Source: Chitinophaga pinensis
GTDB taxonomy: Bacteria; Bacteroidota; Bacteroidia; NS11-12g; UBA955
DNA: 64,000 nucleotides
NCBI GenBank assembly: GCA_945877575.1
Contig: CAMDUE010000002.1
Span: forward strand, 197,861-261,860
Reading direction: 5' to 3'
Shown: one piece after another, positions 16,260-55,116 of the stretch
Layout of the letters: each line of letters opens with the position of its first letter
How positions within the stretch are numbered: the first letter of the stretch is position 1
The notes under the pieces: model-generated
The model's input: the letters and a program-made list of their open reading frames with translations, nothing else
Database searches by the model: none
Told to the model about the DNA's origin: nothing
Translations under genes and position numbers: made by a program

Positions 16260-16386
16260 CCGAGTTTGGCGCCGTTTTACTTCCGAGTTTGGCACTGTTT
16301 TACTTCCGAGTTTGGCGTTTTTTTAAAATACCCCCTACCAACTACCAGGTACCATCTACCAGGTACTAGGTACCAGGTACCAGGTA
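16260..16386. repeat. 23-bp direct repeats (CCGAGTTTGGCRCYGTTTTACTT, about 2.6 copies) followed by a TACCAGGTA / CTACC hexamer array
   Basis: Directly visible in the divergent intergenic region. The array is the reverse-strand version of the GGTAGN family found elsewhere in the window. Confidence 0.8.
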
Positions 16387-25081: not shown

Positions 25082-26116
25082 TTATTCCATTCTCTCCCAA
25101 GTGCTTTTTAGAACTTTTGTTTTGAGGCCGTGTTTTTCGGCGAGGTAGCGCGCGAAGACGGCAGAGTAGCCGTGGGTGACGGAAATGGTGTGGGCTTCGG
25201 TGGCGAGGCAGGCGGTTTCGAGTTCTTGGAAGTCGGCGTGGTCGCTGAGAACGAATCCGCGGTCAAAGTTTCCCCAACGGCGGGAACCGCGAAGGGCCAT
25301 CCAGCCGGAGCAGGAAATTGTTAGGTGACGAGGGTCTTGTGGCGAGGGACTGGTGTCTATATTTTGGGTGTTAGGGGTCGGGTGTCGGGATTCGGAGGGG
25401 GTCGGGTTACGGGAGTCGGTGGGGTTGCTGGAGATGAGGATGTGCTTGGAGGTGGGGCGTTGGTTTTTGGTGGTAGGGTAAATGGGGGGAAGGAAGATAT
25501 TGAAGCCGTCACGGTTGAGGGCTTGGGTTGTGTCGGCGATGGTTTTGGTGACGTAGAGGGGGAGGTCTTGGAGGTGATGGATGAGACGCTGGGCTTTTCC
25601 GAGGGAGTAGGCTGAGATGATGAGGTTTTCATCGTTGTTGTGGAAGTATTCGCGGATGTCGTTGAAGATATCGGCTTGGGGTGTCCATCGAAAAACGGGG
25701 AGTCCGAAGGTGCTTTCGGTGATAAAGTGGTGGCATTTCACGGGTTCGAATGGGGTGGAGATGCCGTCATTGTTGAGTTTATAGTCCCCCGAAACGACCC
25801 AAATTTCGCCTTGATGTTCTAGTCGGATTTGCGCGGAACCGGGTATGTGTCCGGCGGGATGAAAGGAAATGTTGACGCCGTTGATGCTGATGGTTTGGCT
25901 GAAGGGAAGGGTTTGGAGGGAGATGTGTTGACCGAGACGGAGTTTCAGGATGTGTTCGTTGCCCTGGGCGGCGAGGTAGTGTTTGTGGTTGGGTCGGGCG
26001 TGATCAGCGTGGGCGTGGGTGATGAGGGCTTTGTTGACGGGCTTGTGGGGATCTATGTAGACATCGGCGGCGGGGCAGTAGAGGCCGGATGGGGTGGAGG
26101 TTAGTAGTTGGTACAT
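25082..26116 (-). CDS. Ligase-associated DNA damage response exonuclease (MBL-fold)
   Basis: GLYCPAADVYIDPHKPVNKALITHAHADHA N-terminus and HxHxDH metallo-beta-lactamase motif. An ATP-dependent DNA ligase gene lies nearby. Contains an in-frame low-complexity insert. Confidence 0.7.
   Translation of the reverse strand: MYQLLTSTPSGLYCPAADVYIDPHKPVNKALITHAHADHARPNHKHYLAAQGNEHILKLRLGQHISLQTLPFSQTISINGVNISFHPAGHIPGSAQIRLEHQGEIWVVSGDYKLNNDGISTPFEPVKCHHFITESTFGLPVFRWTPQADIFNDIREYFHNNDENLIISAYSLGKAQRLIHHLQDLPLYVTKTIADTTQALNRDGFNIFLPPIYPTTKNQRPTSKHILISSNPTDSRNPTPSESRHPTPNTQNIDTSPSPQDPRHLTISCSGWMALRGSRRWGNFDRGFVLSDHADFQELETACLATEAHTISVTHGYSAVFARYLAEKHGLKTKVLKSTWERME
25325..25480. repeat. G-rich heptamer array (GGGTGTC/GGGATTC/GGGTTAC ...) embedded in-frame in the exonuclease CDS
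   Basis: Seen directly. Encodes TDSRNPTPSESRHPTPNTQ... on the minus strand. Confidence 0.7.
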
Positions 26117-26160
26117 GGTAGATGGTACATGGTAGATGGTAGATGGTACATGGTAGGGGG
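26101..26160. repeat. GGTACATGGTAGATGG hexamer array at the exonuclease start
   Basis: ggtacatggtagatggtacatggtagatggtagatggtacatggtagggggtagggg. Confidence 0.8.
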
Positions 26161-26171
26161 TAGGGGATATT

Positions 26172-28391: not shown

Positions 28392-28413
28392 GGTGCGAAG
28401 ATAGTAAAAATTA

Positions 28414-28560
<147 letters not shown>

Positions 28561-28642: not shown

Positions 28643-28933
28643 ATGGAAAATAAGATGGAACGAATTGAGTTGAGGGTGAGCAAGTCGGAAAAAATGATAT
28701 TACAGCGGGCGGCAGAAATATTGGGTTTCGGGTCATTGAGTGCCTTTTTATTATCGGAAGTTCGTCCTAAAGCAGAGGAGGTAGTGAAGAGAGAGAGTAC
28801 AATAAGATTAAATTTGGAAGACTCTTTCAAGATCATGGAGTATCTTGAAAGGGGGGAAGTGGAGAATGGTGCTTTGAAAAAGGCGAGGGAAATGTACGGT
28901 CAAGTGGTGAAAGATGAAGGAATTCCGATTTGA
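28643..28933 (+). CDS. DUF1778 family antitoxin (TacA-like, RHH)
   Basis: RIELRVSKSEKMILQRAAEILGFGSLSAFLLSE. 96 aa. Overlaps the downstream GNAT gene by 20 bp. Confidence 0.7.
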   Translation: MENKMERIELRVSKSEKMILQRAAEILGFGSLSAFLLSEVRPKAEEVVKRESTIRLNLEDSFKIMEYLERGEVENGALKKAREMYGQVVKDEGIPI

Positions 28934-29402
28934 GAAACTGGATGTAAAAAGGCACGACAGAAAATCATTTGTTTCTGGAAACGAAGAATTAGATCAGTTT
29001 TTTCAAACCCAGGCCAGACAGCAAATGGAGAAGCGTTTGAGTGTCTGCTTTGTCATGTTAAATGGCGGATCAAAAATTATTGGATTTTATACATTAAGTT
29101 CTGCAAGTGTAGAAGCAAATGAAAGTAGAATTTCGAGTTCAAAATATGTAAGCTTACCTGTGGTTTTGATTGGTAGACTGGCTGTACATTCTCAGTTTCA
29201 AAAGCAGGGTTTAAGTGGATTGATGTTGGTTAATATCATTGAAAGAGTTAGAAAATTATCGGAGAGTGAAATTGGGGTTAAGGGCATTTTCGTTGAGCCC
29301 AAATCCGAGGAAATCTCATTGTACTACCTTAAATATGGATTTTTGAAGCTGGAAAAAGGGGTGTTTTATCCTTTCGGTAAAAATTCAAGTAATTCTGGAT
29401 AA
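28914..29402 (+). CDS. GNAT family acetyltransferase toxin (TacT-like)
   Basis: 162 aa GNAT, translationally coupled to the DUF1778 gene. N-terminal KLDVKRHDRKSFVSGNEELDQFF is typical of TacT/KacT. Confidence 0.7.
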   Translation: MKEFRFEKLDVKRHDRKSFVSGNEELDQFFQTQARQQMEKRLSVCFVMLNGGSKIIGFYTLSSASVEANESRISSSKYVSLPVVLIGRLAVHSQFQKQGLSGLMLVNIIERVRKLSESEIGVKGIFVEPKSEEISLYYLKYGFLKLEKGVFYPFGKNSSNSG

Positions 29403-30905
29403 CAGTTCTTCAAGGGTGGCGATGTCTTTGACGGATTTATCGCGGCGCCAGCGCACGATGCGAGGGAAACGAACGGCGATGCCGCTTTTATGTCGGGTGC
29501 TACGATTGATTCCTTCGAAGGCGAGTTCGAAGACGAGTTCGGCGTCTACACTTTTTACAGGGCCGAAACTTTCACGGGTGTGGAGTTTGATCCATTTATT
29601 GACTTCTAGAATTTCAGCGTCAGTGAGTCCGGAATAGGCTTTAGCAAACGGTACGAGTTCCTCGCCTTTGTAAATGGCGAAGGTAAAATCGGTATATAGG
29701 TTGGCGCGACGACCGTGTCCGCGTTGGGCGTAGATGAGAACGGCATCAACAGTGTCTGCGTCGACTTTCCATTTCCACCAATCGCCGCGTTTACGTCCAA
29801 TTCCATAGGCTGAATCTTTGCGTTTGATCATGAGTCCTTCGCTTCTTATTTGGGAGGATTCATTTCTGATTTTCTGGAGTTCTTCAAAGTCTTTGGGATG
29901 AAAAACGGGACTGGGCTGTATGTGAGTGTTTGGTGATGGGAATAGATTGTCTAGTTGTTGTCGACGATTGAAAAGGGGTTCCTGGCGAAGGTCTTGACCG
30001 TTAATTTCGAGGAGGTCATAGGCTAAAAACACGACAGGGTAGTCTGTGAGAGTTTTTTTTCCGGGGGACTTTCTTCCGAGTCTTTTTTGCAGGTCTTGAA
30101 ACGGTCTTGGGAGTTGAAGTTCAAAGTCCCAACAAAGGATTTCCCCATCGAGGGCGCCCGAAAAAGCATCCCAAGAAAGCATGGAGGAAGCAAGTTCAGG
30201 AAATTGGTGGGTGATGATGTCTTCGCCGCGTGACCAGAGGTTTATGGAGTTGTTGCGTTTGATGATTTGCGCGCGGATGCCATCCCATTTAGGCTCTATT
30301 TGATAATTTGTAAGTGGATGAATATCTGTTGATTGAGGATCTTCATTGAAGGGAGACGCAAGGAAAAAAGGGTATGGTTTGGTAGAATTTAGATGGGGTT
30401 TTGGTGAGATGATGAGGTCTTGGTAGTTGGAGTTTTGCACGGTCCAATTTCCCATCAATCGGAGGTTGAGCTCGTCTTTTTCGATGCCTGTGTGAGCGTG
30501 AAGGGCTTGAACGAGAAGTCCTTGAGAGACGCCAAGTCGGAAGCCGCCGGTGAGGAGTTTGATTGATGGTAGTTGGTAGGGGGTAGAGGGTAGGGGGTAG
30601 AGGGACTGTGAGTTTTGGAGGATGAGGTGGATGGTTTCGGCGAGGTCACCTACTACGGAGTAGGATTCTTCGAAGAGCCAATCGGGGATTTGGGCGGTTT
30701 GGATGGCCCATTGTTTGAGTTCGGATAGTTTGATTTGTCGTTTGGGTCGGCGGCCGGTGAAGATTGCGATGACCATGAGTTTGTCAGGGTCTGGGGCTTG
30801 GTTGAAATAATGGGTTAGGGCTTGCACCTTACGGGAGTTTTTGGTGGTGGAGTCGAGTTCGTAGAAAAGTTTGGAAAAGAGATCAGGAACTTCGAAGATG
30901 TGCAT
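29385..30905 (-). CDS. ATP-dependent DNA ligase (ligase-associated DNA damage response type)
   Basis: N-terminal FSKLFYELDSTTKNSRKVQALTHYF. Motif I EPKWDGIRAQI (the adenylated Lys). 506 aa. Contains an in-frame GGTAGN array. Confidence 0.8.
   Translation of the reverse strand: MHIFEVPDLFSKLFYELDSTTKNSRKVQALTHYFNQAPDPDKLMVIAIFTGRRPKRQIKLSELKQWAIQTAQIPDWLFEESYSVVGDLAETIHLILQNSQSLYPLPSTPYQLPSIKLLTGGFRLGVSQGLLVQALHAHTGIEKDELNLRLMGNWTVQNSNYQDLIISPKPHLNSTKPYPFFLASPFNEDPQSTDIHPLTNYQIEPKWDGIRAQIIKRNNSINLWSRGEDIITHQFPELASSMLSWDAFSGALDGEILCWDFELQLPRPFQDLQKRLGRKSPGKKTLTDYPVVFLAYDLLEINGQDLRQEPLFNRRQQLDNLFPSPNTHIQPSPVFHPKDFEELQKIRNESSQIRSEGLMIKRKDSAYGIGRKRGDWWKWKVDADTVDAVLIYAQRGHGRRANLYTDFTFAIYKGEELVPFAKAYSGLTDAEILEVNKWIKLHTRESFGPVKSVDAELVFELAFEGINRSTRHKSGIAVRFPRIVRWRRDKSVKDIATLEELLSRIT
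30568..30605. repeat. (GGTAGN)6 array in-frame inside the ligase CDS
   Basis: ggtagttggtagggggtagagggtagggggtagaggg. Encodes PLPSTPYQLPS on the minus strand. Confidence 0.8.
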
Positions 30906-49341: not shown

Positions 49342-52300
49342 TTAAAATGCTGCTTCAACGCCAATTAGGAACCGGAAATCTACGAAGTTTTCTTGTGGAT
49401 TCACGGTATTTAGGAAAAATGGAAAATCAATTCTATATCGCATGGTTCTTGGAGAGTAAGAGTAGTTGCGATTGATGATTTTATTGTAATTATTGATGTT
49501 GATCCACGTTCCTATTCCGGCATCTGCGAGCAGGTTGCTGTTGTACCAATTATTTGATTTTTGGATTGCGATCAAACCTGCATCAGCGAATAAATAGGGT
49601 GAAAAAGAAATGAATTTATTTTTCAAAAAGGGCGAAAGTAACTTTCCGAAGTGCCATTCTGTGTTGATAGATATACCAGAAGTACCTCTAAAAAATGCCA
49701 TGATGCTGTCGTTTGATTTGATTCCAATGGCTCTTCCATGAAATCCTCTGAGGTTCAGTCCGCCACCTAAATGGGTGTAATTCGGTTGGATGTTTCCGAG
49801 ATTTCGAACCATCATATTTTGGAATTGAGTTTCAGGGTTGGCGCTTGATGTGTAAAGGGCTGATTCAGGTGATGGATTCGCACCTTGAGCTAATTGAGCG
49901 AATACTCTAGACTTGAAAGTGGTTGATTTAATAGGTTGTTGGTGTTTCCATTCTAGGTTAAACCAACCAAATTGTGTTTGGCTCCAAGGCGATATTAATC
50001 GGGTATCAACGGCAATGGTTCCTGACCTTGACCAACCTGAGTATTGGATGTTCCAAAACAGGTGGAAGTTGGTATTGGTTCTGTCAGACCAAGTACTTGC
50101 AGTGGGTAGATAACCATTGAAAAGGGAATTCTTGTTTATGATGGTTTCGGTGTTTGAACTAAGTGCCCTTAGGTCTTTTCCATAAAGTCCGAAGGTATGT
50201 TTCCCCAATTTCCATTTCCAACCTAGTATTGAGCTCAGACGTTGGTTTGAGGAGATGATTTCTGCAAAATATGTCCCTCCACCGCGTATGTCATGTTGCC
50301 AATTTACTAAACCATTGATGGTCTGGTGAGCGAATTTTATATAATTTAATGGGTAAATCTGATTATTAAGGGCATAATATATTCTGGCATCAAAAACATG
50401 TTTTCGGCTGGCATATTGTCCGGTAAATTTTGCACCAATCATGGTTCCAGAATACTGATTGTATGCAATTGCGGGTCTAATTAGTACTTCGTATGGTTCT
50501 AAAATATTGCTATTTGGACCTTGTCCTTGATCGAGTTTAAAGGAAATTTTCTTTTTCCAACGGTTATTCCTTCGGTCAATGTCGGCCAAAAGGTAGGTGG
50601 CGTCCAAGAAAATTTCTGTGAGTTCATGTTTGGGTTCAATGCTCACATTGATGGTAAAATCGCGGTTCAAACGTCCCCAAGAATTCCAAACCTTGGTTGA
50701 AAGCCTGTTAGGAATGATGTATTGATTTGTTGGGATGGTTAATTGGGTAAATATTAATTTTCCACTTTCGGTTCGTGTCAAAAGGTCTAAGTTCACGGGC
50801 ATGGTGAGATTTCCGTAGCGATGAACGGTGATTTTATATTGACCATTCTCGAGCTTTTTTACTTTTTTAATGCCGTAGTCAATGACTTCTTTCGATTCAA
50901 ACCATTGATCAAAGAACTTATTCAGATCAATTTGTGCTGATTGAATGACTGAATTTCGAAAATCTTCTATGTACGGATGCTTGAATTTCCATTGTTCCAC
51001 ATAGTTTTTCATGGCTATCGAGAAAATGGAATCCCCCAAGAAATAGCGCAAATTGTAGAGCATGGTAGCCGTTTTGTAGTATACATTTCCGTATCCGCCG
51101 CCATGTCCAACGGCCTCATGAAATTCATTACTATGGGTATTGAGACGTTCGTCTTCGCCATCAATGGCATCATCCAAATAGGGGCCAATGGCCCTGGAAT
51201 ATTCGGGAAATGGCTCTACTTTCAGCTCTTTCAGAGCTTCGGCCGTTAAAAATTGAGTGAATCCTTCGTCGAGAGCTGCCCGATAGGTTTCGTTGCTGCC
51301 CACCATTCCCATGAACCAATTGTGGGCCACTTCGTGTGCGATGAGTGCTCTGTGCGAGGGATAGGAACCGCCGCAGAGCGTGAGCATGGGGTATTCCATA
51401 CCATCAGCAGCGTCTGCCACCACAATTTTAGGGTATGCATACATCCCATAATTTCGGCTGTAAAAGGCAATGACTTCACTTAAATATTGCGCGGTTTTTG
51501 TCCAATTTTTGGCATTATGGGCTTGTGCGATTGCCACGCATTGAATTCCGTTCCATGTGACTTCGCTTATTCTGTAGGTTGGATCAGCTGTCCAAGCAAA
51601 ATCGTGAACGTTTTGAGCAAGGAAATGCCAAGTTTTGGTAGTTGGTAGGGGGTAGTTGGTAGTTGGTAGTTGGTAGGGGGTAGTTGGTAGGGGGGTGTTG
51701 GGTTTCGGGTTTTGGGTTTCGGGGGACGGGGAGCGGGAGTTGGGTTGGTTGATGTCAATGGCTTTTTTGAGATCATCGGGAAGTGCTTCTTCGCGGTTTA
51801 AGAGTAATCCGGTGGCTTCAACGATGTACTTTTCTGGGAGATTTAGTTTCACATCAAAGGTGCCAAAGTCGCCGTAAAATTCTTTTTCAAGGTGTTGGCT
51901 GGTTTCCCAAGTGAACTTTTGGTCATAGACGCAAATTCTTGGGTACCAATGAACACCGTTGAAATGTTTAACTCCATGATGATCAAACACTTTCATTCTC
52001 CGGCGAATGGATCCTCGATCAAAATAAGTCTTGAACCAAATTTCAAACACGCAAGAATCTCCTGATTGCAGAGGCTCAGGAAGATCAATTTTCATGATGG
52101 TATAATCAATCTGAGGATCTAAAATGACTTTTTTATAGGGTTTGGTTGATTTATTTCCTTCAATTTGAATCCATGTGATTTGTGTCCCCAAACCTTGTTT
52201 TTCGTAGTTGCCGTAGGTGGGTTTAATTTTATTTAGTTCGTAGAGTTTATCTGTTAAAGAACCTGGCTGAGTGGAGTTTTGATATAAATGAAAAAAAGCT

Positions 52301-52548
52301 TCATTCAGGGTATTGGGTGAGTTGTTGGTGTAAGTCAATCGAAGTTTACCCGTAATAACTTCCGAACTATCATCAAGACTTGCATCTATTTGATAGTGAA
52401 CTTTTTGTTGCCAGTAAGTGGTAGGTGGTAGATGGTAGGGGGTAGGGGGTACTTGGTAAATGGTAGGGGGTAGTTGGCCGTTGGTAGAGAGGAGTTTTGT
52501 GGGGAAGAGTGACCAGAAAAAGATGAGCAAAATCAAGCGCATTCTCAA
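49342..52548 (-). CDS. M1 family zinc metallopeptidase (secreted), with PT/Y-rich low-complexity linkers
   Basis: Signal peptide. HEVAHNWF...E (HEXXH-X18-E). 1068 aa. Two in-frame hexamer-repeat inserts. Confidence 0.8.
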   Translation of the reverse strand: MRMRLILLIFFWSLFPTKLLSTNGQLPPTIYQVPPTPYHLPPTTYWQQKVHYQIDASLDDSSEVITGKLRLTYTNNSPNTLNEAFFHLYQNSTQPGSLTDKLYELNKIKPTYGNYEKQGLGTQITWIQIEGNKSTKPYKKVILDPQIDYTIMKIDLPEPLQSGDSCVFEIWFKTYFDRGSIRRRMKVFDHHGVKHFNGVHWYPRICVYDQKFTWETSQHLEKEFYGDFGTFDVKLNLPEKYIVEATGLLLNREEALPDDLKKAIDINQPNSRSPSPETQNPKPNTPLPTTPYQLPTTNYPLPTTKTWHFLAQNVHDFAWTADPTYRISEVTWNGIQCVAIAQAHNAKNWTKTAQYLSEVIAFYSRNYGMYAYPKIVVADAADGMEYPMLTLCGGSYPSHRALIAHEVAHNWFMGMVGSNETYRAALDEGFTQFLTAEALKELKVEPFPEYSRAIGPYLDDAIDGEDERLNTHSNEFHEAVGHGGGYGNVYYKTATMLYNLRYFLGDSIFSIAMKNYVEQWKFKHPYIEDFRNSVIQSAQIDLNKFFDQWFESKEVIDYGIKKVKKLENGQYKITVHRYGNLTMPVNLDLLTRTESGKLIFTQLTIPTNQYIIPNRLSTKVWNSWGRLNRDFTINVSIEPKHELTEIFLDATYLLADIDRRNNRWKKKISFKLDQGQGPNSNILEPYEVLIRPAIAYNQYSGTMIGAKFTGQYASRKHVFDARIYYALNNQIYPLNYIKFAHQTINGLVNWQHDIRGGGTYFAEIISSNQRLSSILGWKWKLGKHTFGLYGKDLRALSSNTETIINKNSLFNGYLPTASTWSDRTNTNFHLFWNIQYSGWSRSGTIAVDTRLISPWSQTQFGWFNLEWKHQQPIKSTTFKSRVFAQLAQGANPSPESALYTSSANPETQFQNMMVRNLGNIQPNYTHLGGGLNLRGFHGRAIGIKSNDSIMAFFRGTSGISINTEWHFGKLLSPFLKNKFISFSPYLFADAGLIAIQKSNNWYNSNLLADAGIGTWININNYNKIINRNYSYSPRTMRYRIDFPFFLNTVNPQENFVDFRFLIGVEAAF
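51637..51750. repeat. (GGTAGN)n + (GGGTTTC)n composite array in-frame in the M1 peptidase CDS
   Basis: ggtagttggtagggggtagttgg...gggtttcgggttttgggtttcgggggacgggg. Encodes NPKPNTPLPTTPYQLPTTNYPLPTT. Confidence 0.8.
52419..52492. repeat. (GGTAGN)n array in-frame right after the M1 peptidase signal peptide
   Basis: gtggtaggtggtagatggtagggggtagggggtacttggtaaatggtagggggtagttgg. Encodes QLPPTIYQVPPTPYHLPPTTY. Confidence 0.8.
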
Positions 52549-54304: not shown

Positions 54305-54480
54305 TCCAAGGTAGTTGGTAGCAGGTAGTTGGTAGCAGGTAGTTGGTAGTTGGTAGCAGGTAGTTGGTAGTTGGTAGCTGGGCTCTGGCCCAAAACCCGG
54401 TACCCAAAACCCGAAACCCGATACCCGATACCCGATACCCGATACCTGAAACCTGATACCCGATACCCGGTACCCGATAC
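54305..54480. repeat. About 175-bp simple-repeat block: (GGTAGYWG)n then (CCCGATA/CCCGAAA)n
   Basis: Seen directly between convergent coaD and NUDIX genes. The minus strand is a (GGGTATC)n G4 motif. Confidence 0.85.
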
Positions 54481-55116
54481 CTAGTACCCAGTACCAACTA
54501 AATGCTTCTTGATGATATCGTGGATGCTGTGGTAGGACTGGAACTCAGAAGAGTTGAACCAGTCAAGTGGGGCGAAATTTGCTTCGGTGATGCCTTCTTC
54601 TTCTTGCGGTTTTAATGCGGCGGTGCCGCTGCTGTTCATTCTGTACCAGTGGGTTTCCTTTAGGAGAATGGCGTTGTCTTCGTAGTAGGCGTGGTAGGTT
54701 TCTCCGATTTTTTCGGAAATGTTGAGGTGATTGATGCCGGTTTCTTCCATCACTTCGCGAAGGGCGGCGGCAATTTGATCTTCGTGGCGTTCTATTTTGC
54801 CCTTGGGAAGATCCCAAACACCGTTGCGTTTGATGGTTAGTAATTCGTGGTTTTTGTTGAATACTAATCCTCCAGCGGCTTGAATAACGGTGTATTCTTC
54901 AATGAATTCTCTCAGTGTTTCTTGAGGTTCAGGGGTCATCAATCCGAAGGTCATGGGTTTGCCCAAGGCCTCGCTTGATATTAAGATGTTAAAACTTTTA
55001 TGGATTTCATCATCACCTATGAAATAAAAGTTTGGAATGCCTTTGAGAGCATCCAGAGAATCTGTGATGATCAACGCACCCTCATTGAAGTAGATTTTGT
55101 AAGTTTGCGGCTCCAT
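54481..55116 (-). CDS. NUDIX hydrolase
   Basis: Nudix box GKIERHEDQIAAALREVMEETGI. Confidence 0.8.
   Translation of the reverse strand: MEPQTYKIYFNEGALIITDSLDALKGIPNFYFIGDDEIHKSFNILISSEALGKPMTFGLMTPEPQETLREFIEEYTVIQAAGGLVFNKNHELLTIKRNGVWDLPKGKIERHEDQIAAALREVMEETGINHLNISEKIGETYHAYYEDNAILLKETHWYRMNSSGTAALKPQEEEGITEANFAPLDWFNSSEFQSYHSIHDIIKKHLVGTGY

Follow-up and report, generated by a model that had tools for sequence, protein, structure and literature searches.

A dispersed G-rich heptanucleotide repeat lies in frame within an M1-family peptidase gene of an uncultured Bacteroidota lineage

Locus and Array Structure

The gene for an M1-family zinc metallopeptidase (49342..52548, minus strand) was examined on a stretch of 64,000 nucleotides (nt) of contig CAMDUE010000002.1 (GenBank assembly GCA_945877575.1). 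This whole stretch is called the window; all positions are given in its coordinates, and its GC content was 38.7%. A tandem array of G-rich heptanucleotides lay inside the peptidase gene at 51637–51748, with the G-rich sequence on the plus strand, which was the template strand of the host gene. Unit reading and TRF resolved the array into 16 units of period 7 in one register. The first eight were GGTAGNN units (51637..51692), in the order GGTAGTT, GGTAGGG, GGTAGTT, GGTAGTT, GGTAGTT, GGTAGGG, GGTAGTT and GGTAGGG. The remaining eight were GGGNNNN units (51693..51748) that shared the 7-nt phase of the preceding part, in the order GGGTGTT, GGGTTTC, GGGTTTT, GGGTTTC, GGGGGAC, GGGGAGC, GGGAGTT and GGGTTGG. 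On the sense strand, the first part read as CTACCNN and encoded TPLPTTPYQLPTTNYPLPTT, and the minus strand of the second part encoded NQPNSRSPSPETQNPKPN. The in-frame translation of the whole array was NQPNSRSPSPETQNPKPNTPLPTTPYQLPTTNYPLPTT, corresponding to 38 residues (267–304) of the host protein.

TRF reported periods of 7, 14 and 28 for the arrays with matches of 83–90%, and the units were joined head to tail without spacers. The 16-unit array was degenerate, in that units varied at two of the seven positions and the longest run of identical units was three. The GGTAGNNGGTAG pattern had 34 matches in the window and none in 100 dinucleotide shuffles. An earlier sequence-based note (the original prediction) had placed the bases at 51637–51750, in frame in an M1 metallopeptidase, and both points agreed with the minus-strand translation of the open reading frame (ORF) 49342..52548. 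Its division of the feature into a (GGTAGN)n hexamer array followed by a heptamer array was replaced by the present reading, because the first part consisted of eight GGTAGNN heptamers and the 7-nt phase ran unbroken into the GGGNNNN part.

Host Peptidase and Position of the Insert

The host gene was assigned by Pfam, Foldseek and alignment to the M1 family; its product has a signal peptide, and its C-terminal half is all-beta. The ORF had a TTG start at 52548, giving 1068 amino acids (aa), and its relatives began at the ATG at 52542 (MRL...). Peptidase_M1 (PF01433) matched residues 400–549 with an E-value of 2.5e-14. The protein carried a HEXXH-(18)-E zinc site, a GXMEN-like exopeptidase motif and the M1 fold; its zinc-binding motif, HEVAH in the catalytic domain (51322..51336, minus strand), was 100 residues downstream of the insert. 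DGMEYP and NETYRAALDEGF were invariant across the alignment of homologues.

An AlphaFold2 model of the host protein was built from a 48-sequence alignment, with a mean predicted local distance difference test (pLDDT) score of 75. IRAP, ERAP1 and PepN were matched in Foldseek with E-values of ~1e-20. The model had confident beta strands up to residue 245, helices at 252–263 and confident strands again from residue 304. The pLDDT values were below 50 at residues 271–299, which belonged to the loop array, and at residues 13–46, which belonged to a second in-frame GGTAGNN array of the same gene (52413..52489, G-rich on the plus strand); confident folds were present on both sides. The product of the second array, QLPPTIYQVPPTPYHLPPTTY, formed the mature N-terminus immediately behind the signal peptide. 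The insert is thus predicted to be a disordered loop joining the N-terminal beta domain and the catalytic domain. The placement of the insert between these domains, as first proposed, was supported by the model and by the downstream HEVAH motif.

The model further suggests that the M1 peptidase is fused to a probable outer-membrane beta-barrel, and the peptidase is probably exposed or secreted. Residues ~650–1068 (49342–50601) were all-beta in the AlphaFold2 model, and the protein ended in Phe. A Pfam search with the C-terminal 419 residues gave no match. C-terminal fragments of the peptidase carried the JGI label 'hemolysin activation/secretion protein', and the arrangement of peptidase and all-beta C-terminal part was kept in thousands of Bacteroidota homologues.

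Lineage Restriction of the Repeat

The homologues were compared in a 20-sequence protein alignment, in which every homologue had a variable loop at the insert site. Homologues of 47–59% identity carried an unrelated loop of ~20–22 aa (DIxNFKxKPIGSxPSxIIPPxxxxKTWHF), and relatives of 83% and 78% identity had a 13-residue loop. The repeat-derived loop sequence was limited to relatives of at least 86% identity. The DNA of the 83% clade contained a two-unit proto-repeat, GTCCCCCGAAACCAAAAC, at the insert site, which was homologous to the start of the GGG/CCC array and indicated growth or decay in place. Judged from these sequences, the site is natively a loop, and the repeat is a recent lineage-specific expansion in place. 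The expectation that M1 enzymes do not natively carry this linker was borne out, since outside the relatives of at least 86% identity only the unrelated 20–22-aa loop or the 13-aa loop was found. The evidence likewise supported the idea of an in-frame insertion or expansion, restricted to the lineage, where the N-terminal beta domain meets the catalytic domain.

Allele Ladder and Reading Frame

Strain variants were collected from metagenome assemblies. A scan with the 20-nt left flank recovered one contig, further strains were obtained through exact matches to neighbouring small proteins, and only ~5 contigs were recovered independently of the peptidase ORF. Arrays were present in independent assemblies from ENA, Logan, NCBI and JGI, indicating that they were not assembly artefacts. 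The peptidase gene of the window was 100% identical to that of ena:ERZ27280281:k141_1150525 (L030/L037).

The loop DNA between the AIDIN and KTWHF anchors was 111 nt long in the window and L030, 90 nt in L001, L003, L005, L028, L029 and L032, and 39 nt in the array-less L002. The loop protein alleles had 37, 30 and 23 aa, the last corresponding to 69 nt in a 69/90/111-nt series. The N-terminal array had DNA alleles of 88, 109 and 172 nt, and the N-terminal segment had protein alleles of 28, 35, 42, 49 and 56 aa. On contigs with an identical 192-aa downstream neighbour protein, the full-length peptidase was 1059, 1066, 1073 or 1080 aa long; all 13 full-length members listed for the array-less cluster had 1034 aa. 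The peptidase alleles therefore formed a ladder, as they differed by exact steps of 21 nt (7 aa). Outside the arrays, the window and L001 were 98.8% identical at the nucleotide level without gaps, and all 21 gap positions lay within arrays. The corresponding values for L029 were 97.8% identity, no gaps outside the arrays, and 84 gap positions, again all within arrays. In the P0137 allele (ETRSPKPETRSPKP), the GGG part was expanded and the GGTAG part was contracted, indicating that the two sub-arrays vary independently.

The same behaviour was found in another gene. In an ATP-dependent DNA ligase gene, three contigs had an array of 80 nt, and the array of L039 was 42 nt longer (122 nt) and still in frame. 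The intergenic GGTAG array after a coaD-like gene had 10 units in the window, 8 in L001 and 7 in L025, indicating that the array there was not restricted to steps of 3n units. No out-of-frame (OFF) allele was found among nine loop and seven N-terminal observations at the DNA level or among the protein alleles, all of which came from consensus assemblies in which minority OFF cells are possible.

Contigs of the lineage ended, split or had N-gaps at or near heptamer arrays (the starts of L027, L033 and L038; the split between L005 and L025; ~1819–2598 in L039), and such breaks produce shortened gene calls that mimic frameshifts. Two apparent OFF alleles were rejected: the contig of P0134 stops within or close to the array, and L039, the source of a 351-aa ligase call, has an N-gap next to its array. 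P0133, on a 1,226-bp contig, and P0148 likewise resembled possible OFF alleles and remain candidates.

Orientation, Encoded Peptide and G-Quadruplex Motif

Translation of the plus strand of the array gave a TAG stop codon at every third unit. Hence, the G-rich strand, which is capable of forming a G-quadruplex (G4), must be the template. The C-rich sense reading (...CTACCNNCTACC...) passed through the codons CTA, TAC, ACC, CCN, CNN, NNC and NCT, none of which can be a stop codon, so the C-rich strand is open in all frames for any NN. Read as sense, the heptamer array passed through all three frames and produced a repeat of 7 aa, LPTTNYQ or one of its variants, so the Pro/Thr/Tyr/Gln/Asn composition of the peptide follows from the repeat unit. 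O-glycosylation of this linker had also been proposed. Under the sequon definition supplied with that proposal, D(S/T)(A/I/L/V/M/T), no sequon was present in residues 267–304, and the two in the protein were at residues 506 and 947.

The proposed canonical G4 motif on the template strand was present. Eight consecutive tracts of at least three G (G3+) with loops of 2–4 nt were counted at 51690–51744, rather than the nine or more tracts with loops of up to 4 nt that had been described; the ninth and tenth G3+ tracts, upstream of the eight, were set off by loops of 9 and 23 nt. The eight tracts matched the G4 regular expression, and the G4Hunter score was 1.62 over 86 nt (51667–51752). All canonical G4 motifs of the window lay within heptamer arrays.

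With the G-quadruplex option, ViennaRNA gave two stacked three-layer G4s at -19.4 kcal/mol, versus -0.7 kcal/mol when this option was off. When the 114 nt were mononucleotide-shuffled, the mean was -23.9 kcal/mol, and the shuffled sequences folded as well as the native one or better. The suggested G4 check thus returned a predicted G4 with a folding energy no better than that of shuffles, and predicted folding was rejected as evidence of selection because the shuffled sequences scored as well. The motif is real, and according to the folding model it would equal what base composition alone gives.

Dispersal of the Heptamer Family

The window contained at least eight period-7 arrays, about one per 8 kb, which entered roughly 7% of the genes; four of the arrays touched coding sequence. 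An array-period filter over the window returned seven period-7 arrays in the scan and, with the same settings, none of period 5, 6, 8 or 9. Every locus from the clade of at least 83% identity had period-7 arrays, and one array was found in ~330 kb of loci from relatives at 59% identity or below. In-frame arrays occurred in four genes, namely an MBL-fold gene, the ATP-dependent DNA ligase gene, the peptidase gene (twice) and the C-terminal tail of a NUDIX gene. In all in-frame coding arrays, the C-rich strand was the sense strand. An Rfam scan of the entire window gave no family at the gathering score, indicating that the arrays are not a known RNA element. A scan of IMG/VR viral contigs with (GGTAGNN)5 found 41 contigs (L041–L081) with a GC content of 29–71%, mostly with pure single-unit arrays and often at contig ends. 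The GGTAG core is therefore not unique to the lineage, and these matches do not inform the mechanism.

A GGTAGNN/GGTACCT array lay between divergent genes at 16335..16386, with the G-rich sequence on the minus strand. A GGGNNNN-type array at 25364..25425 (plus strand) was in frame in the gene 25082..26116 (minus strand) and encoded NPTDSRNPTPSESRHPTPNTQ; a GGTAGNN/GGTACAT array at 26103..26166 (plus strand) covered the 5' end of this gene and the region upstream of it. The DNA ligase gene (29385..30905, minus strand) had its GGTAGNN array in frame at 30568..30604 (plus strand), which encoded SLYPLPSTPYQLPSI.

A composite array of five AGTCCGA, eight GGTAGNN and six GGACTAT units was located at 28420..28558 (plus strand), 29 nt upstream of an S46 peptidase gene. 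Its outer arrays, of AGTCCGA type at 28412–28451 and GGACTAT type at 28519–28558, were 40-nt inverted repeats with 80% complementarity around the GGTAGNN array. Pairing between these two inverted arrays might produce a long, imperfect hairpin in the 5' region.

Between the coaD-like and NUDIX genes, 10 GGTAGNN units began 6 nt past the coaD-like stop codon (54310..54379, plus strand). They were followed by the palindrome GGGCTCTGGCCC (54380..54391), which was kept in L001 and L025, and then by ~15 GGGTNTC units (GGGTATC, GGGTTTC and GGGTACC) at 54392..54495. The latter array was in the opposite orientation, with the G-rich sequence on the minus strand, and overlapped the NUDIX stop codon and last residues. 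The composite insert at 51637–51748 had been described as having the same architecture as 54305–54480. The same two unit families were indeed present at both sites, but at the latter site the second family was on the opposite strand and a 12-nt palindrome lay in between.

Comparison With Known Repeat Systems

The STRR heptanucleotide repeats of the cyanobacteria Calothrix and Anabaena comprise several tandem heptamer families dispersed in one genome. By description, they are set apart from the present repeats by their phylum and their units.

Heptamer repeats of the GGGNATC type, dispersed in the genomes of Xanthomonas and Nostoc, differ in copy number and fold into G4s in vitro (Rehm et al., 2015; PMC4692102). 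The present arrays resemble them in being dispersed G-rich 7-nt arrays of variable copy number, with at least four G3 tracts 4 nt apart and enrichment outside genes. The host here, by contrast, is a low-GC uncultured member of the Bacteroidota, and the dominant unit is GGTAGNN, which is not a G3 unit. None of the eight GGG units at 51693–51748 matched GGGNATC, and the neighbouring array at 54392–54495 fitted as GGGTATC. A run of at least four consecutive G3+ tracts was found at 51690–51744, where folding is a prediction. Four arrays (26103, 28420, 54310 and 54392) and all four in-ORF arrays, a small sample, followed the GGGNATC-type orientation pattern.

In neuO of the Escherichia coli K1 phage CUS-3, a perfect (AAGACTC)n tract of 3–53 units is out of frame in 65.6% of genomes (PMC13001214). 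The peptidase arrays share with it a 7-nt coding tandem repeat, a full-length protein that depends on the frame, and a heptapeptide for every three units. They differ in having degenerate units, 11–16 in number, without any OFF allele seen, and in belonging to a genome-wide family rather than to a single dedicated switch.

As represented in PMC4679880, Mrazek et al. (2007) described long simple sequence repeats of prokaryotes with units of 5–11 nt, among which heptamers predominate. TAACTGA heptamer arrays were reported in Beggiatoaceae, Cyanobacteria and five Bacteroidetes (MacGregor, 2015; PMC4679880). The present arrays consisted of head-to-tail 7-nt units, were dispersed far above chance and differed in copy number between close strains, as is characteristic of long simple sequence repeats. 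Moreover, they are similar to both in their sporadic, lineage-specific bursts and mostly intergenic location, often beside start or stop codons. The TAACTGA arrays also show several unit types per spacer (Gramella, Aequorivita) and occasional translation in the stop-free orientation, as do the arrays here. What differs is the G-rich GGTAG and GGG cores and a strain-level, in-frame allele ladder in conserved enzymes.

Origin of the Array and Alternative Explanations

The feature is most likely a single member of a family of G-rich heptanucleotide simple-sequence repeats (GGTAGNN, GGGNNNN) that is specific to the lineage and scattered through its genome, and it would have been expanded by slippage and filtered by the reading frame. 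The array would have grown and shrunk in place by replication slippage or unequal recombination, in an inter-domain surface loop of the M1 peptidase that was already variable and structurally tolerant. Because 7 is not a multiple of 3, an allele stays in frame and survives only if it changes by 3n units (21 nt, 7 aa), hence the 7-aa allele ladder. The DNA repeat would yield the encoded peptide, a disordered linker, as a by-product, and the G4 motif may similarly be a by-product of unit composition. In this account, the anatomy of the array, its dispersal, its restriction to the lineage, the ladder of alleles, the clustering of indels in the arrays, the predicted disorder and the argument from stop codons were observed here, and we infer slippage as the mechanism and neutrality of the peptide. 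Several points weigh against it. Slippage alone leaves unexplained why the GGTAG core seeded arrays at no fewer than seven separate sites, and both the peptide and the G4 motif are assumed to be neutral. Most alleles were recovered through intact protein calls, which creates a bias against frameshifted copies. Furthermore, the loop arrays of the window and L001 differ by more than one 21-nt indel, as the order of their units differs.

A contingency locus of the neuO kind, in which single-unit changes would switch the secreted or outer-membrane peptidase on and off and 3n changes would tune its length, is quite unlikely. Its geometry is matched, in that a coding array of heptanucleotides is translated in full only at unit numbers that preserve the frame (PMC13001214). 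Close to the 5' end of the gene, one array follows the signal peptide immediately, the arrays are hypervariable between strains with an identical neighbouring gene, and the peptidase is probably surface-exposed. However, the peptidase arrays, although non-triplet coding repeats, lack both the long near-perfect tract and the common OFF alleles of neuO: no OFF allele was seen here, against 65.6% OFF among complete neuO genomes, and imperfect units with at most three identical in a row lower slippage rates. Cytoplasmic housekeeping genes (DNA ligase, the MBL-fold gene and NUDIX) share such arrays as well. Selection on the template-strand G4 itself, which would regulate the peptidase gene by blocking transcription or replication or by acting as a hotspot of recombination, is equally improbable. 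The eight G3+ tracts with loops of at most 4 nt, the G4Hunter score and the two-G4 prediction of ViennaRNA would fit such a function, as would the confinement of the canonical G4 motifs to heptamer arrays despite a GC content of 38.7%. The GGGNNNN part is also the more conserved half across the 86–98% clade, and the orientation of the arrays relative to genes fits the pattern of the G4-forming Xanthomonas and Nostoc repeats (PMC4692102). Nevertheless, shuffles fold as well or better and thus give no hint of optimisation beyond G-richness; the template orientation is already forced by the GGTAG stop codons; and the commoner GGTAGNN family has only GG tracts unless NN is GG.

The Pro/Thr/Tyr-rich peptide is very unlikely to be the selected product, that is, a glycosylated or functional spacer under diversifying selection for length. 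In a protein that is probably secreted, both peptidase arrays fall in exposed, disordered segments, and near-identical strains have N-terminal segments of 28 to 56 aa, as such selection might produce. Yet the insert lacks the Bacteroidota O-glycosylation sequon, the same peptide motifs occur in cytoplasmic enzymes, and the array-less clade and all distant homologues manage without the insert. The DNA repeat, whose units fill non-coding spacers in identical form, is therefore primary. A discrete two-module mobile or modular element of GGTAG and GGGTTTC arrays, inserted both in the gene and at 54305–54480, is highly improbable. The two unit families do adjoin at two sites 2.6 kb apart. The idea, which stems from the original prediction, is nonetheless largely refuted: the second family is inverted beyond a palindrome at 54310–54495 but direct and in one continuous 7-nt phase at 51637–51748; GGTAGNN is paired with other families or with none at 28420–28558, 30568, 52413 and 16335; the sub-arrays change independently (P0137 versus P0141); and the array-less clade holds a proto-repeat. 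No inverted terminal repeats or conserved boundaries were found flanking the array at 51637–51748. A broader possibility is that a sequence-specific process of the lineage seeds GGTAG- and GGG-core arrays genome-wide, that the coding arrays act as hypermutable length-tuners or possible switches of exposed proteins under diversifying selection on the N-terminus and loop (by phage or grazers, for example), and that template G4s modulate transcription; we consider this unlikely.

The array, which was probably expanded by slippage, is a fairly ordinary and clear case of a known kind of bacterial repeat and shows a strain-level in-frame ladder. It illustrates how a non-triplet repeat colonises coding sequence, through a strand that is stop-free in three frames, a tolerant loop and a frame filter that leaves 7-aa steps. 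It also extends the G-rich heptamer families, which so far are mainly known from Xanthomonas, cyanobacteria and Beggiatoaceae, to uncultured low-GC Bacteroidota. In practice, heptamer arrays break metagenome contigs, and care is needed not to take the length variants that they create for new domains or mobile insertions.

Additional Observations on Neighbouring Genes

In the 83% clade, the coaD/NUDIX spacer (L002 4434–4494; L004 5257–5437), orthologous to 54305–54495, held period-7 arrays with unrelated units, namely GGTGATC, GCCGTCA, GGTTAGT, GGTTTTC, CACTCTG and AACTCTA. Orthologous coaD/NUDIX spacers thus keep the array site while the unit sequence turns over. At the 3' end of the NUDIX ORF (54481–54495), the final residues GTGY and the stop codon came from the heptamer array. 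The NUDIX gene was called as 157 aa in relatives versus a 211-aa ORF in the window.

A gene for a 92-aa TacA1-family antitoxin-like protein overlapped a 162-aa gene at ~28655–29402, between the array of the S46 peptidase gene and the DNA ligase gene. Records of species-representative metagenome-assembled genomes that carried the locus (CAZGQS01, CAYPBJ01 and CAZBMF01; L004, L005, L011 and L025), with synteny of GldH, LpxK and the M1-barrel gene, were titled 'uncultured Rhizobium sp.', an apparent mislabel.

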